Assembly (NCBI GenBank): GCA_020743075.1
Contig: DYVS01000149.1
Coordinates: 8,159-72,158, forward strand
DNA: 64,000 bases
Direction of reading: 5' to 3'
Source: Butyricimonas virosa
GTDB taxonomy: Bacteria > Bacteroidota > Bacteroidia > Bacteroidales > Marinifilaceae
The translations under genes were made by a program, and so were the position numbers. The notes under the pieces are model-generated. The model did no database searches. It was not told the DNA's origin and saw only the letters and a program-made list of their open reading frames with translations. How positions within the stretch are numbered: the first letter of the stretch is position 1; every line of letters begins with the position of its first letter. Positions 7,805 through 26,118 of the stretch are shown here, piece by piece.

Positions 7805-8812
7805 ATGGCGAAGCGGGTAGCTATTATTATATTGAATTGGAACGGGGAGAAGTTGTTACGGGAGTTTTTGCCCTCGGTCGTGAAGAATACGAATGCTGAT
7901 TTGGGGCGTGTTGTTGTTGTGGATAACCATTCTACGGATGGTTCCTGGATATGTTTGGAACAAGAGTTTCCAGACGTGGAACGGGTGCTGTTCGAGGAGA
8001 ATTTCGGATTCGCTGGGGGTTATAACCGGGCGATCGAGATGATCGAGGTAGAATATGTGGTTCTTTTGAATAGTGACGTGGAGGTCGCTCCCGGTTGGTT
8101 GGAACCGTTGGTCGCCGTGTTGGACCGGGACGAGAAGGTTGCGGCCGTGCAGCCGAAGATATTAGCATATCGGGATAAAAACAAGTTTGAGTACGCCGGA
8201 GCGGCTGGGGGATACATTGATTATTTAGGATTTCCGTTTTGCCGTGGGCGTGTGATGGATACCACGGAACAGGATTATGGACAGTACGATGATGAGGTAG
8301 ATGTTTTTTGGGCAACGGGGGCCTCTCTATGTATTCGGCGGGACGTGTACCGTGTAGCCGGAGGGTTGGACGAGGCTTTTTTTGCGCACATGGAAGAGAT
8401 TGATCTTTGTTGGCGATTGAAAAATGGAGGGTATACTTTAAAGGTGGTTCCTTCTTCTGTCGTCTACCATTTGGGGGGAGGCTCATTGCCGATGAATCAT
8501 CCGAGAAAATTGTTTTTGAATTACCGGAATAATTTATTGATGTTGCATAAGAATCTGTGTGCTAAACAGCGTAAGAAAATCTTTTTTGCACGAGTTTTGC
8601 TGGACACGATGGCGGGAGGGCTTTTCCTATTGAAAGGTCAATGGTCCAACACCCGTTCGGTAATCCGGGCATACAAGGCTTTCCGGGAGATGAGAAAAGT
8701 CTATCCGGTTCCAGAACGTTCCGTGAGTCTTTCGGGAATATATCCCCGGAGTATCGTGTTGGATTATTTCTTGCGGGGTAAAAAGAAGTTCTCGGATTTA
8801 AATTTTAAATGA
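7805..8812 (+). CDS. family 2 glycosyltransferase
   Basis: 335 aa; VAIIILNWNG, VVVDNHSTDGS, LLNSDVEV, FWATGASLCIRR and EEIDLCWR motifs of GT2 rhamnosyltransferase-like enzymes. Confidence 0.8.
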   Translation: MAKRVAIIILNWNGEKLLREFLPSVVKNTNADLGRVVVVDNHSTDGSWICLEQEFPDVERVLFEENFGFAGGYNRAIEMIEVEYVVLLNSDVEVAPGWLEPLVAVLDRDEKVAAVQPKILAYRDKNKFEYAGAAGGYIDYLGFPFCRGRVMDTTEQDYGQYDDEVDVFWATGASLCIRRDVYRVAGGLDEAFFAHMEEIDLCWRLKNGGYTLKVVPSSVVYHLGGGSLPMNHPRKLFLNYRNNLLMLHKNLCAKQRKKIFFARVLLDTMAGGLFLLKGQWSNTRSVIRAYKAFREMRKVYPVPERSVSLSGIYPRSIVLDYFLRGKKKFSDLNFK

Positions 8813-10452: not shown

Positions 10453-10542
<90 letters not shown>

Positions 10543-10562
10543 CCAAGTTTGAAGCTCATTTT

Positions 10563-10636
10563 CGGGGCGTAGCGCAGTCCGGTAGCGCATCTGCTTTGGG
10601 AGCAGAGGGTCGCAGGTTCGAATCCTGTCACCCCGA
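10563..10636 (+). tRNA. tRNA-Pro (anticodon TGG)
   Basis: Acceptor CGGGGCG/CACCCCG (C1:G72, A73 as in bacterial tRNA-Pro), D-arm GCGC-AGTCCGGTA-GCGC, anticodon arm TCTGC-TTTGGGA-GCAGA, T-arm GCAGG-TTCGAAT-CCTGT; CCA not encoded. Confidence 0.9.
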
Positions 10637-10733: not shown

Positions 10734-10777
10734 CGTACATTTGTTTGCAAATAGTTTGCAAAAAATTGGTGAGAAAT

Positions 10778-21874: not shown

Positions 21875-22681
21875 ATGGGACAATGTAATGATAATTCACA
21901 GCTCGCATTGAGAATTCATATCAAGAATTCAGAACCTATCCAAGTGTCTGATTTTACTGCATCAATGAACGCTATCGGATCGTACTTTTCTAGTTTTGCT
22001 CAAAAGAACGGTATGTCCAAGGAATTATCTAACGCCAAGCTATGCGTTAGCAAGATAACCGAAGGTTCTATTGACATTCATCTCGTTGAACTGGTTTCCC
22101 TATCCATGATCCCGTTCGTGGAGAATTTCAACTTAATCATGGAGTTTGCCAAGAACTTGAAAAACGTCTACGATTATTTCACTTCATCTTCTGGCGAAAA
22201 ACCAGAATTGACAGCTAAAGAATTGCAAGATTTGCATGATATTCTGTCAATACCTTCTAAAGATCAATGTGGGCAAATGGACATTCAGGTGATAAAAGGA
22301 GATGTTAATAATGTTGTCTATACTGGTTGCACTTTCAATTATATAGAGAGCAACGGTACCCAAAATTTAATTGATAAAGAGATTGAAATTGTAAAATCCG
22401 TATCTGAACAAGACGAGATACACACGAATCAACTCATGACCATGTATCAAATCAGGGGTATCAATAGCAATTCTGGAAATAAAGGGATAATAGAAGCGTT
22501 AAACAAAAAGGCGTTAAATCTCTTGTTTGAATCTGATGGAATCAAGGATCAGATAATAAATTCAAAGAACAATCCATTAAAGAAAGTGTTTGCCGTTGAT
22601 GTTGTTATACAAAACATGAATAACAAACCGTTTGCTTATAAAATCGTTAAACTACTTGATGTTTTTGATATAGAAGACTAA
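21875..22681 (+). CDS. hypothetical protein (self-contained moron)
   Basis: 268 aa from ATG 21875 (the track ORF starts at 21809 inside the promoter); own promoter and terminator; no recognised domain. Confidence 0.55.
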   Translation: MGQCNDNSQLALRIHIKNSEPIQVSDFTASMNAIGSYFSSFAQKNGMSKELSNAKLCVSKITEGSIDIHLVELVSLSMIPFVENFNLIMEFAKNLKNVYDYFTSSSGEKPELTAKELQDLHDILSIPSKDQCGQMDIQVIKGDVNNVVYTGCTFNYIESNGTQNLIDKEIEIVKSVSEQDEIHTNQLMTMYQIRGINSNSGNKGIIEALNKKALNLLFESDGIKDQIINSKNNPLKKVFAVDVVIQNMNNKPFAYKIVKLLDVFDIED

Positions 22682-22712
22682 CCTTCCACATATTTATATT
22701 TTTAGTATCAAG

Positions 22713-22737
22713 GCGAGTAAATTCTACTCGCTTTTTT
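22713..22737 (+). terminator. rho-independent terminator
   Basis: GCGAGTA-AATTC-TACTCGC followed by TTTTTT. Confidence 0.75.
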
Positions 22738-22740
22738 CGT

Positions 22741-22776
22741 GGAATTTGGAATTTAAAGATAATAGTTGTATGTTTG
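22741..22776 (+). promoter_or_regulatory. Bacteroidota promoter, copy 2
   Basis: TTTG (22745-22748), 20-nt spacer, TATGTTTG (22769-22776). Confidence 0.6.
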
Positions 22777-22781
22777 CCTTT

Positions 22782-22974
22782 GCCAAAGACTTATTGCAAA
22801 CAAACGTGTCAGAGCTATTTTTATGGCTACTGGTAAGCTATTATCTATAACGATATAAGGCTATCACCCCTTGTTGGCTATGACAGTTTGTTGTAGTGGT
22901 CTTTGGCGAGATAAGAGGGGCTGGTAGCCTTTCTTGTATTATTAATTTCAAATTTCATTCAATGCCAAAGACCA
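22782..22974 (+). promoter_or_regulatory. structured 5' leader L1 with alternative helices
   Basis: X GCCAAAGAC (22782-22790), X' TGGTCTTTGGC (22897-22907), X2 GCCAAAGACCA (22964-22974, includes the G of the ATG); helix AAGGCTAT (22857-22864)/GTAGCCTT (22924-22931); CCCC/GGGG inner helix. Confidence 0.5.
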
Positions 22975-23243
22975 ATGAAATTTGTAAAGGTGCGAAGTAT
23001 AGTAACACCCGAACACGTGAATCCCAACGAAAGAGGGAAATCCAAAAGTTGCAACACAAACTTTCCAAGTTGCACGAAGAATTAAGCAAGGAGAAAGAGT
23101 GTAAGGACAAAGCTTATTACTTCATCCTTAGCACGAACAACTTTAATAGATACGCTGAATTCAGTAAAAAATTTGACGGTTTCACGGCATGGCACGAGGC
23201 GTGCGTGGTGAAAATGCAAATGGACGCGTTGGAAAGTAAATAA
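22962..23243 (+). CDS. small coiled-coil protein, paralog A
   Basis: 93 aa from ATG 22962; KDKAYYFILSTNNFNRYAEFSKKF shared with the ORF at 25825 (KNKAYYFIISSGNFNRFAEFCKKH). Confidence 0.55.
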   Translation: MPKTNEICKGAKYSNTRTRESQRKREIQKLQHKLSKLHEELSKEKECKDKAYYFILSTNNFNRYAEFSKKFDGFTAWHEACVVKMQMDALESK

Positions 23244-23260
23244 TCTAAACCAAATAATAC

Positions 23261-23914
23261 ATGAAGACAAATCAAGAAATGATTCGTCCGATGGGTAATT
23301 TTAACGTTATCCAGAGGACGAAGGACGGTATGTTTAACGCCACTGATTTATTGAAACAATGGAATTCATTCAATAGTCAGCAAAAACAGATAGTCCACTA
23401 CACGGAGAATTCTTCCACGTCTGAATTTATAAACGCCTTGATACTAGAGGAAAATTTAAAAGAACGGAATTCCGTTATTATACAATGCAGAGGTAAAAAT
23501 GGTGGAACGTGGATGCATCCTTTACTTTTTATCGACTTTGCCATGTGGTTGAACCCAACCTTTAAGGTAAAGGTTTTAAAATTCGTTTCCGACGAGATGA
23601 TTCGTTACCGCAATGATGCCGGGGACGCTTACTTGAAATTAAGTTCTGCCGTGATGAAAATAGTACCAAGGGATTTCATGCCTAAAGCGATGAAGAAAAT
23701 AGCGGAGGCTTTAAACTGGGTAATATTTAACGAACACGAGAGTGGGATCAGGAACAAGCACGGGGAGGAAAGCAAGCAAAGAGAATTGTTTCACTTGGAA
23801 TCCAAGGTTACAGATCTTATAAACGAGGGATTTATCACGTCGTACGATCAACTTCTTAAATATTTAAGGAAACAATGGAATAATAATTGGCAGCCTAAAG
23901 TATTGCAAGTATAA
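23261..23914 (+). CDS. KilA-N domain protein
   Basis: 217 aa; FNVIQRTKDGMFNATDLLKQW...GGTWMHPLLFIDFAMWLNPTFKVKV. Confidence 0.8.
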   Translation: MKTNQEMIRPMGNFNVIQRTKDGMFNATDLLKQWNSFNSQQKQIVHYTENSSTSEFINALILEENLKERNSVIIQCRGKNGGTWMHPLLFIDFAMWLNPTFKVKVLKFVSDEMIRYRNDAGDAYLKLSSAVMKIVPRDFMPKAMKKIAEALNWVIFNEHESGIRNKHGEESKQRELFHLESKVTDLINEGFITSYDQLLKYLRKQWNNNWQPKVLQV

Positions 23915-25592: not shown

Positions 25593-25630
25593 AATATTCG
25601 ATTGATTAATTGGCATTTTGAAATTTGTTG

Positions 25631-25836
25631 TATCTTTGTGGTGTTCAGACCAAGAACACATACATATAATTGCAAATGGTATTTTTATGCCGTTTGATAG
25701 TTTATATCAGCAAAGATATAGGGCTATTCAATACCCGTAGCTGCCGTTTGCAAATATGTAAATGGTGTTCTTGGTCGAACAATCGGGGTTGAGTAGCCCT
25801 TTTTAAATACAAATTTCAAAGCTAATGACCAAGAAC
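25631..25836 (+). promoter_or_regulatory. promoter plus structured 5' leader L2 (paralog of L1)
   Basis: -7 box TATCTTTG (25631-25638); X GACCAAGAACAC (25648-25659), X' GTGTTCTTGGTC (25765-25776), X2 GACCAAGAAC (25827-25836, includes the G of the ATG); helix AGGGCTAT (25720-25727)/GTAGCCCT (25793-25800). Confidence 0.5.
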
Positions 25837-26118
25837 TTGAAATTTGCCGACAACGTACAAGGTACGATTAAACGCACGTCCACCCACGAAACGGGTAAAT
25901 TGCTATCTAAAATCAATTCGTTACAAGGACAGCTTGAATCTTGCAGGAACGCCCTAGAGATAGAGAAGAACGCCAAGAACAAGGCGTACTATTTCATCAT
26001 CAGTTCCGGTAACTTTAACAGGTTCGCCGAGTTCTGCAAGAAACACCCCGCCACTCTCGATTATCACGGGGCGTGCGTGGCCGAGTTGTACCTTCAAGCT
26101 GTTTCAAACGAGAAATAA
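25825..26118 (+). CDS. small coiled-coil protein, paralog B
   Basis: 97 aa; shares the KAYYFI.S..NFNR.AEF.KK core with the ORF at 22962. Confidence 0.55.
   Translation: MTKNLKFADNVQGTIKRTSTHETGKLLSKINSLQGQLESCRNALEIEKNAKNKAYYFIISSGNFNRFAEFCKKHPATLDYHGACVAELYLQAVSNEK

Follow-up and report, generated by a model that had tools for sequence, protein, structure and literature searches.

A widespread leader RNA of gut Bacteroidales phages in which one segment can pair with either of two sites, one of them at a start codon

In a 64 000-nucleotide (nt) stretch of DNA from Butyricimonas virosa (contig DYVS01000149.1, positions 8159 to 72 158), hereafter the window, a prophage carries a leader in front of an open reading frame (ORF) of 93 amino acids (aa). 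A short word in this leader, X', can pair either with X, at the 5′ end of the predicted transcript, or with X2, which begins within the start codon of the ORF. Is this arrangement a regulatory RNA and, if so, what would it control and by what means? In a first-pass annotation, made from the letters of the sequence, it was taken for a switch worked by a ligand, by temperature or by a protein. Comparison of homologous sequences indicates that the two mutually exclusive pairings are real and under selection. The leader is a real and widespread RNA family, apparently undescribed so far, and most of its members head operons of a small ORF and an antirepressor gene in temperate phages of gut Bacteroidales.

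Temperate phages of Bacteroides, Phocaeicola, Paraprevotella and their relatives are among the commonest human gut viruses; to our knowledge, how temperate gut Bacteroidales phages decide between lysogeny and lysis is largely unknown. Antirepressor genes of Bacteroidales phages are nearly silent in lysogens (PMC8354205) and switch on early after DNA damage (bioRxiv 10.64898/2026.06.25.734096); the preprint also cites a public total RNA-seq data set from an induced Bacteroides lysogen (PRJEB110793). The leader offers a concrete, sequence-readable control point for such genes, present in at least 120 viral contigs.

Three matched words and their covariation

The words and the transcription signals near them are listed here in coordinates of the window (1 is its first letter).

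22782-22790, plus strand: X, GCCAAAGAC, the 5′ end of the predicted transcript
22897-22908, plus strand: X', the antisense word, TGGTCTTTGGC at 22897-22907
22964-22974, plus strand: X2, GCCAAAGACCA, whose first letter is the G of the ATG (22962-22964) of the 93-aa ORF
22710-22740, plus strand: hairpin resembling an intrinsic terminator, followed by T6 (GGCGAGTA/TACTCGC then TTTTTT; inverted repeat I6), which ends the upstream 290-aa gene
22745-22776, plus strand: Bacteroides-type promoter, with -33 TTTG at 22745-22748, a 20-nt spacer and -7 TATGTTTG at 22769-22776

The 9-mer GCCAAAGAC occurs exactly three times in the window (at 22782 and 22964 on the plus strand and at 22899 on the minus strand), so that the three words picked out in the first-pass annotation are its sole copies; its mean count in shuffled windows was 0.34, and three copies were reached in 0/100 shuffles. 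A repeat finder gave 9 bp for X:X' and 11 bp for X':X2; it also returned a direct repeat, TGCCAAAGAC, at 22781 and 22963, and a closing helix, I1, made of 22857-22875 and 22913-22931. The X':X2 pairing takes in the U and the G of the AUG and codons 2-4, reaching 9-10 nt past the AUG.

Because of the terminator-like hairpin at 22710-22740 the leader is a separate transcription unit. The consensus promoter that had been read ahead of X, TTTG-N20-TATGTTTG, is conserved: all homologues have the -7 motif TAnnTTTG, always 11-12 nt ahead of the CCA of X, and the -33 TTTG lies 17-23 nt upstream in 47 of 56 distinct upstream regions. The sequence thus places the predicted transcription start site (TSS) at about X, just after the promoter.

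Gut phage contigs and Bacteroidales genomes yielded 73 distinct homologues (L-numbered). When fixed windows were cut around the invariant CCA/UGG cores, a gap-free alignment of 38 distinct triples of X, X' and X2 resulted, across which both of the pairings that had been proposed as mutually exclusive covary. For X':X2 (12 pairs), 96.7% of the cells were paired, eight pairs had compensatory changes, and covariation was 0.49 as compared with 0.14 after shuffling; for X:X' (16 pairs), 77.5% of the cells were paired, with 11 compensatory pairs and covariation of 0.39 versus 0.14. The observed values were reached in 0/500 shuffles in either case, counts that are not probabilities, as the homologues are related; the argument is carried by the independent words and by the slid controls. 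In slid registers X':X2 was 30-47% paired, and the covariation of both pairings stood above all slid controls. When the 23 distinct word pairs were compared, 11.74 of 12 positions were paired in cognate combinations versus 9.13 of 12 in non-cognate ones. A G·U pair to the U of the AUG was conserved in 33 of the 38 triples.

X' follows X2 more faithfully than X. Of the 77 cells in which X and X2 disagree, 55 have an X' that pairs with both, by G·U wobble in the cases read by eye, such as X GCCAAGUUC, X2 GCCAAGUCC and X' GGACUUGGC; this accommodation of both words by wobble rules out a DNA-level or simple direct-repeat explanation. Such tracking of both X and X2 by X' is a signature at the RNA level.

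Some other roles for the words were considered and rejected. A word inside an ORF, ACGCCAAGAACAAGGCGT (25970-25987, motif EKNAKNKAY), was examined as a fourth target; its variation is synonymous and does not track X'. The same peptide motif is encoded by ACGCCAAGAACAAGGCGU, in which the consensus X word is present and a small hairpin forms, probably by coincidence. A transposon or miniature inverted-repeat element with target-site duplication (the TGCCAAAGAC repeat) would have left terminal inverted repeats, and there are none; it would also leave X' unexplained, and the words covary. Mimicry of a tRNA 3′ end in the manner of a T-box (UGGC/GCCA) is a likeness only and fails to explain the covarying extension.

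Two incompatible folds

The leader region folds at -69.7 kcal/mol (z = -5.8 versus shuffles), and the following parts were recognized in it.

22780-22818, plus strand: 5′ mask strand of rod P1, which holds X (from minimum-free-energy structures, X:X' covariation and upper-rod duplex energies)
22810-22832, plus strand: P2 hairpin with conserved loop UAUUUUUA (from alignments, RNAalifold and folds of the 5′ half)
22842-22855, plus strand: P3 hairpin, UAUC/GAUA here (from alignment and folds)
22857-22870, plus strand: 5′ arm of I1, with AAGGCUAU at 22857-22864 and CCCC at 22867-22870
22876-22909, plus strand: 3′ strand of rod P1, which without the 5′ strand self-folds as hairpin Hm (22877-22897)
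22899-22912, plus strand: hairpin Hx', which holds X' when the mask is absent, with UGGC/UUGGCG in the loop
22911-22949, plus strand: 3′ arm of I1, T hairpin and U-rich tract, with GGGG at 22917-22920 and GUAGCCUU at 22924-22931
22911-22937, plus strand: T hairpin, terminator-like in a scan, with G·U pairs; an alternative to I1
22946-22987, plus strand: Pstart hairpin, CAAAUUUCAUU/AAUGAAAUUUG, 11 bp (22949-22959 / 22975-22985)
22989-23009, plus strand: H5, a hairpin inside the ORF, GGUG/CACC with conserved loop CGAAGUAUAGUAA
23022-23038, plus strand: H6, a hairpin inside the ORF, UCCC/GGGA with loop AACGAAAGA

The long rod, the start codon in the loop of an 11-bp hairpin, the terminator-like hairpin at 22911-22937 and the structure that runs on to ∼23038 are additions to the first-pass description.

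In fold A, X:X' forms the base of an imperfect rod of 35-45 bp (22780-22909 here), and this rod is the minimum-free-energy (MFE) structure of all 28 representatives (-56 to -76 kcal/mol). Although the sequence of its upper part is not conserved, the pairing energy is -15.4 kcal/mol for cognate strands versus -7.4 kcal/mol for non-cognate ones, and the cognate strand was the best partner in 19 of 26 cases, with three of the seven failures being anchoring errors. As the middle of the rod cannot be aligned, whole-leader MAFFT alignment followed by RNAalifold recovers the rod base and the T hairpin only; anchored windows and alignment-free duplex tests were therefore used. At the apex, the 5′ arm of P2 has an alternative partner in the uppermost part of the rod 3′ strand, and the stem of P3 varies in matched fashion across homologues (CUGUAU/AUACAG, CUUGUA/UACAAG), a judgement made by eye and not by a formal pair count.

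The 3′ half has a fold of its own. The 3′ sub-RNA taken alone assumes one Y shape in 26 of the 27 homologues folded (L254 is without Hx'): I1 closes a junction of Hm, i.e. the self-folded 3′ strand of the rod, and Hx', which presents UUGGCG, with UUUCUU coming next. I1 is the RNAalifold consensus of this sub-RNA; it is 96.3% paired and has compensatory changes in 7 of 12 pairs, such as GGCUAUC/GAUAGCC to GGCUGUC/GACAGCC, or CUCCC/GGGAG to CUCAC/GUGAG or CUCCU/AGGAG. Hx' is 98% paired with all four pairs compensatory, and the local hairpins Hx and Hx' covary (0.88 versus 0.24). I1 links the rod apex to sequence 0-7 nt past the rod base and therefore cannot coexist with the full rod, an argument that is steric and not computed. 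The closing helices noted around X' at first pass thus do covary, as I1 shows, but they belong to the fold that excludes the full rod and do not fit easily beside X:X'.

When folded alone the rod 3′ strand is structured (mean -7.0 kcal/mol, z = -2.4), unlike its complement (-1.0 kcal/mol, z = +0.4; p = 3e-8); from this asymmetry it follows that what is selected is RNA, of the plus strand, and an independent 3′ module. The 5′ mask strand alone is unstructured in the homologues. With the halves folded separately, X' lies in a hairpin loop in most homologues, X in nearly all (this copy being an exception) and X2 in the loop of Pstart. A hairpin followed by the U-tract is present in all members, and both I1 (12 covarying pairs) and T abut UUUCUU; the T hairpin itself is possible in every member but has no covariation signal. 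Reading the sequence between the U-tract and the ATG by eye, we saw no separate promoter motif.

For 27 leaders fold A had a mean energy of -63.8 kcal/mol versus -47.0 kcal/mol for the halves folded separately, a gap of 16.8 kcal/mol. In this copy the X-bound state came to -81.3 kcal/mol and the X2-bound state to -72.9 kcal/mol (a gap of 8.4 kcal/mol with the upper rod retained). The duplexes themselves have energies of -20.4 kcal/mol (X':X2) and -19.1 kcal/mol (X:X'), and in an RNA starting at 22855, which has no 5′ strand, X':X2 is part of the MFE structure.

These energies bear directly on the idea of a cis-acting riboswitch, RNA thermometer or protein-operated switch, in which an effector bound at the multi-helix junction would move X' between X and X2. 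Part of that logic stands: a leader in which X' on X2 blocks translation and X on X' frees it is the most economical reading, the mutually exclusive pairings are real, the apical junction has strongly conserved unpaired UAUUUUUAUG, GCAAAG and AAGGCUAUCA, and the conserved loops of H5 and H6 are possible protein sites. Operation by ligand or by temperature is nevertheless unlikely. The helix to be switched is the 35-45 bp rod, with energy gaps of 8-17 kcal/mol, well above the gaps expected to be shifted by ligand binding. A thermosensor would have a weak, mismatched helix over the start region that melts near 37-42 C, while X':X2 consists of 11-12 contiguous perfect pairs and is no thermolabile helix of that sort. 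The metabolite riboswitch is likewise contradicted, both by the advantage of the rod and by the genes downstream, which are small ORFs, antirepressors and HNH endonucleases or accessory genes, none of them metabolic or for transport. The first-pass view that this is no known RNA family agrees with Rfam 15, which gave no match in the whole window at the gathering threshold, nothing relevant in 22600-23100 at E<=10 and nothing in nine other members at E<=1. An effector-driven switch is, in our estimate, quite unlikely, its protein-operated version being the one that might still apply. The length of the rod, the energy gaps and the antirepressor context point to a leader whose state depends on whether the 5′ strand is present, has been removed or is occupied.

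Structure continues through the start codon. The 14-nt loop of Pstart displays the AUG (22962-22964) and X2 (22963-22974), and the arms of Pstart pair at -8.2 kcal/mol with cognate versus -4.4 kcal/mol with non-cognate partners; in the window the Pstart pattern is found only here and at 25810-25846. Within the ORF the structure stays conserved for ∼25 codons, or ∼75 nt, as far as about 23038. Nine of nine H5 pairs have compensatory changes in RNAalifold, and in the duplex test the H5 arms, too, favoured their own partner over foreign ones; for H6 the duplex test gave -6.6 kcal/mol (cognate) versus -2.3 kcal/mol (non-cognate). The frame is open from the conserved ATG in all homologues, which have at least eight unrelated protein bodies and share only the first ∼30 codons. 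The CGAAA motif of H6 is used in all three frames (CAA CGA AAG here, CAC GAA ACG in a second copy of the leader, GCG AAA ACU in others); it is therefore the RNA, not the peptide, that is conserved.

The second copy is complete, and nhmmer found exactly these two in the window.

25631-25925, plus strand: second leader copy, with -7 box TATCTTTG at 25631-25638, X at 25648-25659 and X' at 25765-25776
25785-25800, plus strand: its T hairpin
25810-25846, plus strand: its Pstart hairpin, with AUG at 25825 and X2 at 25827-36

It folds with z = -7.8, heads a 97-aa paralogue (25825-26118; 41% identity to the product of the 93-aa ORF) and keeps all three pairing relations with other words: X GACCAAGAACAC, X' GUGUUCUUGGUC and X2 AUGACCAAGAAC. 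The words of the two copies, GCCAAAGACCA in the first and GACCAAGAAC in the second, do not cross-pair (8 of 12 pairs, longest run 5, counted by hand from the alignment), and the two copies in contig 3300007853_000178 are likewise mutually non-complementary. The terminator-like hairpin was called by the scan in both window copies. The two hairpins inside the ORF, which in the second copy lie at ∼25852-25905, have CGAAnnAUAGUAA and ACGAAAC/GCGAAAA as their conserved loops; read in one frame, the loop CGAAnnAUAGUAA gives UAA UAG UAA.

The arms of Pstart, GAAATTTG/CAAATTTC, lie at 22949-22957/22976-22984 and at 25810-25818/25838-25846, and the arm motif is seen also in the promoter spacer of the second copy (25619-25627) and of many homologues (e.g. 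TTTTGAAATTTGAG). It may be that a repressor operator overlies the RNA hairpin at Pstart.

One could go further and suppose that operator, recombinase or cruciform sites in the DNA account for the whole arrangement in place of RNA pairing. The palindrome CAAATTTC...GAAATTTG of Pstart is indeed conserved in sequence in many members, and with GAAATTTG recurring in the promoter spacer of many copies an operator over Pstart is conceivable. Sites in DNA do not account for the pervasive strand-specific G·U pairs (including that at the U of the AUG), the wobble of X versus X2 or a structured 3′ strand with an unstructured complement; nor do they fit words that vary between copies and phages, unlike protein-binding sites, a fixed distance from the promoter, or Pstart stems that covary (e.g. 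AAUACUUGUCC/AGGAAGUAUU). We regard this explanation as very improbable.

Two reading frames within the leader were rejected as leader peptides: a 26-aa ORF, MFAFAKDLLQTNVSELFLWLLVSYYL (22770-22850), begins within the -7 box and is missing in those homologues that have TATCTTTG, and an in-frame ORF starting with GTG at 22896 is not conserved.

Operon context and a proposed mode of action

Downstream of the first leader copy two genes follow each other closely.

22962-23243, plus strand: 93-aa ORF, hydrophilic, no known domain
23261-23914, plus strand: KilA-N domain protein of antirepressor type (Pfam KilA-N, E = 2e-22), starting 17 nt past the stop of the 93-aa ORF

By similarity, an antirepressor-family gene (ANT/KilAC, Bro-N, Rha, AntA, P22_AR_N, KilA-N) lies within 2.5 kb in 42 of the 73 members; elsewhere the gene after the leader ORF encodes ANT/KilAC fused to Bro-N, Rha or KilA-N, or else AntA or P22_AR_N. 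In 8 further members an HNH/NUMOD4 endonuclease gene comes first. The leader ORF and the next ORF are often separated by -4 to +19 nt, a distance at which translational coupling could operate. NUMOD4/HNH homing-endonuclease genes stand right after the leader ORF in L063, L112, L013, L093, L125, L164 and L055, insertions that replace or precede the antirepressor gene.

The reading that we consider fairly probable is that of an antisense/anti-antisense leader, in which a repressor of the start codon, X', is built into the transcript and the 5′ strand that opens with X serves as its mask. In fold A, the 5′ strand would pair from X onwards over 35-45 bp with the strand ending in X', so that X' is masked; the AUG would be shown in the Pstart loop and only the weak T hairpin would stand before the U-tract, and the operon would be read through and translated. 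We infer that this is the ON state. Fold B would arise in an RNA whose 5′ strand is missing, has been cleaved away or is already occupied. There the 3′ half would collapse into the compact Y module (I1, Hm and Hx' with UUGGCG), in which I1 plus the U-tract resembles a strong intrinsic terminator, and X' would pair with UGCCAA... (X2), covering the AUG and codons 2-4. The small ORF would be off and, via coupling or polarity, so would the antirepressor gene behind it. There are two candidate triggers: the 5′ strand might be removed by RNA processing, or a free copy of the 3′ module might act on it in trans. The leader may thus be an RNA-level control point of the lysis-lysogeny switch.

Several points weigh against this reading. 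The TSS, termination at the U-tract and the processed species are predictions from the sequence. When the 5′ strand is present the rod is the thermodynamic and probably the co-transcriptional product, and the sequence names no trigger for fold B. The T hairpin precedes the U-tract in fold A too, so that read-through in this fold is an assumption, and I1 together with X':X2 makes a pseudoknot, which lies outside the energies computed. The conserved loops of P2, P3, H5 and H6 could bind a protein, and this protein would then be the real switch. Some loops resemble promoter elements: the P2 loop (TATTTTTA/G; TATTTTTG in some members) is similar to a Bacteroides -7 box (22816-22823 in the window), and so is the P3 loop when taken as its reverse complement (TATCTTTG in roughly half of the members; 25711-25718, minus strand), but no -33 TTTG is properly spaced from these motifs, and we found no convincing internal or antisense promoter, conceivable though one is. 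Finally, 23 of the 73 members, the second copy of the window among them, have no recognizable antirepressor gene within 2.5 kb.

The finding that a 5′-truncated RNA spontaneously forms X':X2 may also be read as a mark of a processing or stability element: the rod would be cut by RNase III or another nuclease, X' at the new 5′ end would pair with X2, and the 5′-terminal hairpin would mainly protect or time the mRNA and not act as a regulated repressor. Long imperfect double-stranded RNA rods are classical RNase III substrates, with T7 early mRNA and the lambda N leader as precedents, and the rod here is of this kind and is conserved by compensation alone. On the other hand, cutting both strands of the rod would split the arms of I1 between molecules, yet I1 covaries; the self-structures Hm and Hx' of the 3′ strand and the need for pairing over the AUG itself are left unexplained. 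We judge this explanation unlikely.

More has to be said for an immunity RNA acting mainly in trans, as in P1/P7 c4 or P4 CI, although we would not expect it to prove right. Here a 3′ module of ∼85-95 nt (I1, Hm and Hx', with its end at the U-tract), freed by termination and processing, would accumulate and pair through its UUGGCG loop with the X loop and the X2 start-codon loop of cognate transcripts, turning translation off and forcing termination, and the variable part of the word would set immunity specificity. The 3′ half is an autonomous, conserved folding unit that ends in a terminator-like stem and U-tract. X' in most members, X in nearly all (not in this copy) and X2 lie in hairpin loops of the separately folded halves, and the X' loop has a YUNR-like UUGG; YUNR loops are typical of antisense recognition and a loop-loop layout is the usual antisense design. 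The words diversify yet stay matched (23 word pairs), the two window copies are not complementary to each other, with the same being seen in contig 3300007853_000178, and the leader of L025 stops matching other members at the U-tract. The c4, CI and IsrK RNAs are precedents (PMC4825925, PMC8198154, PMC12197685). Against this, the 5′ edge of the module has no evidence of a promoter or processing site, X' is buried in the rod within the primary transcript, no free-standing module was found save the decayed L210, and word differences of 1-3 nt may not be orthogonal, with 83 of 506 non-cognate pairs reaching at least 11 of 12.

With a built-in antisense masked by the 5′ strand as the preferred reading, one could speculate that the released 3′ module serves as a free immunity RNA and that the whole system propagates itself; we hold this to be improbable. 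A free module would bind the unstructured 5′ mask of a nascent cognate leader and no rod would form; the leader deprived of its mask would fold its own 3′ module and terminate at the U-tract with its start codon blocked, so that the OFF state would turn new transcripts into more repressor. If true, this would be a bistable memory made of RNA only, keeping antirepressor genes silent in Bacteroidales lysogens, with the variable word as the address that sets heteroimmunity among gut phages.

Both L025 and L210 deserve description. L025 (IMGVR_UViG_3300029361_000336, minus strand, ∼8638-8710) is identical to the type of Bacteroides phage BF1-TP2 as far as the U-tract, and beyond it continues in unrelated DNA without start-codon hairpin or X2; the U-tract here behaves like a module boundary. 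L210 (193-282; Tannerella sp. metagenome-assembled genome (MAG) JAIROL010000051.1) is a decayed copy without promoter, X and 5′ half, which retains I1, Hm and X' and has X2 mutated to AUGCAAGAAACAAUG; a full copy, L188, is in the same MAG. The state of L210 is what a masked built-in antisense would predict for a gene escaping permanent repression, though as a single anecdote.

The family and its relation to known systems

The window is a prophage beside two tRNA genes, with rightward early genes (NinB-like, DUF4494, RusA, C5 methyltransferase) and leftward structural genes that include a 2143-aa tape-measure-like ORF. Its blocks are, in order:

10453-10636: tRNA genes
10745-11977: integrase
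16551-37400: early genes
37983-63894: structural genes

Homologues of the leader are widespread. A pattern made from the conserved arms matched at least 120 IMG/VR viral stretches, and phage BF1-TP2 carries one homologue; cellular homologues were found in Bacteroides mediterraneensis and Paraprevotella xylaniphila, and MAG homologues in Bacteroides, Tannerellaceae, Tannerella, Dysgonomonadaceae and Capnocytophaga. A scan of genome contigs with GGCTRTCAN{40,70}GGCGRYAGCCTTT listed matches that were mostly due to chance, in unrelated phyla; nhmmer retrieved 10 true loci. Our literature searches found no description of the leader element.

In BF1-TP2 the annotated coding sequence of gp11 (L001 3036-3392; PQ571263.1 5898-6254) begins 42 codons upstream of the conserved ATG, within the leader RNA. 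Its true start is likely to be the ATG in the conserved hairpin loop (L001 3162, record 6024), from which a 76-aa protein with a hydrophobic C-terminal half is read.

As far as the literature was searched, the leader would be the first RNA-based control of antirepressors outside Proteobacteria. Bacteroidota make little use of Shine-Dalgarno pairing, and in such a phylum masking the start codon itself is an obvious lever. Matched words would let cross-regulating phages be predicted, and the module is a natural, compact and re-addressable translational switch for Bacteroides engineering. In this family, moreover, the opening ∼25 codons (∼75 nt) of many unrelated proteins are dictated by RNA structure.

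Among known systems, the layout recalls first of all P4 CI, an antisense RNA in the leader of its own operon that pairs with seqA upstream and seqC downstream and brings about premature operon shut-off (PMC4825925). As with seqA-seqB-seqC, in X-X'-X2 one segment is complementary to an upstream and a downstream site, here with both covarying. Unlike in P4 CI, the upstream site stands at the extreme 5′ end of the RNA and is continued by the 35-45 bp rod, and downstream the start codon is targeted directly; there is no homology in sequence or structure (Rfam negative).

In P1 and P7, the c4 RNA of the c4-icd-ant (immI) operon pairs at the ribosome-binding region, and differences in its words give heteroimmunity (PMC8198154, PMC12197685). 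The leader is likewise co-transcribed upstream of a small ORF and then an antirepressor gene (KilA-N here; such a gene in 42/73 homologues), and it has complementarity to the translation-initiation region of the first ORF (X':X2). It differs in its fold, with no match to Rfam C4, in having one word instead of two (a', b') and in its host phylum, Bacteroidota. The CA RNA of N15 resembles c4. We know of no long cis mask as a feature of c4.

The Gifsy-1 IsrK promoter gives both a short terminated RNA and a read-through mRNA, in which orf45 is coupled to the antirepressor gene anrP; the read-through mRNA has alternative structures A and B, one of them translationally inactive (PMC4825925). Here too two alternative folds, each with covariation support, precede a small ORF and an antirepressor, their effect on translation being a matter of deduction. 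There is no homology, and the polarity is opposite: the default full-length fold of IsrK is inactive and is activated in trans by the short RNA, while in the leader the start codon is exposed by default, in the rod, and the embedded antisense would act as a repressor.

In the fold-back of hok/sok mRNA and in the leader of the MS2 maturation gene, access to the start hinges on a partner for which the mRNA 5′ end and a downstream segment compete, and processing or folding kinetics set the state. The 5′ end of our leader competes with a downstream segment for X' in the same manner. Unlike in hok/sok, there is no separate antisense gene, the context is one of antirepressors, and the ORFs are mostly not small hydrophobic toxins: as to features of type I toxin-antitoxin systems, the 93-aa ORF is hydrophilic and only some members have small membrane-like ORFs, and a search for a separate antisense promoter found TAnnTTTG motifs on the antisense strand without a properly spaced -33 box.

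With translational riboswitches, e.g. the add adenine riboswitch, the leader shares a P1 whose 3′ strand alternatively pairs with the translation start region; a P1 of 35-45 bp sets it apart, and we found no recognizable aptamer or association with metabolic genes. By sequence or structure the leader belongs to none of P4 CI, c4 and IsrK. It is a variant of a known idea, RNA control of phage antirepressor operons, realized by a family that is itself apparently new.

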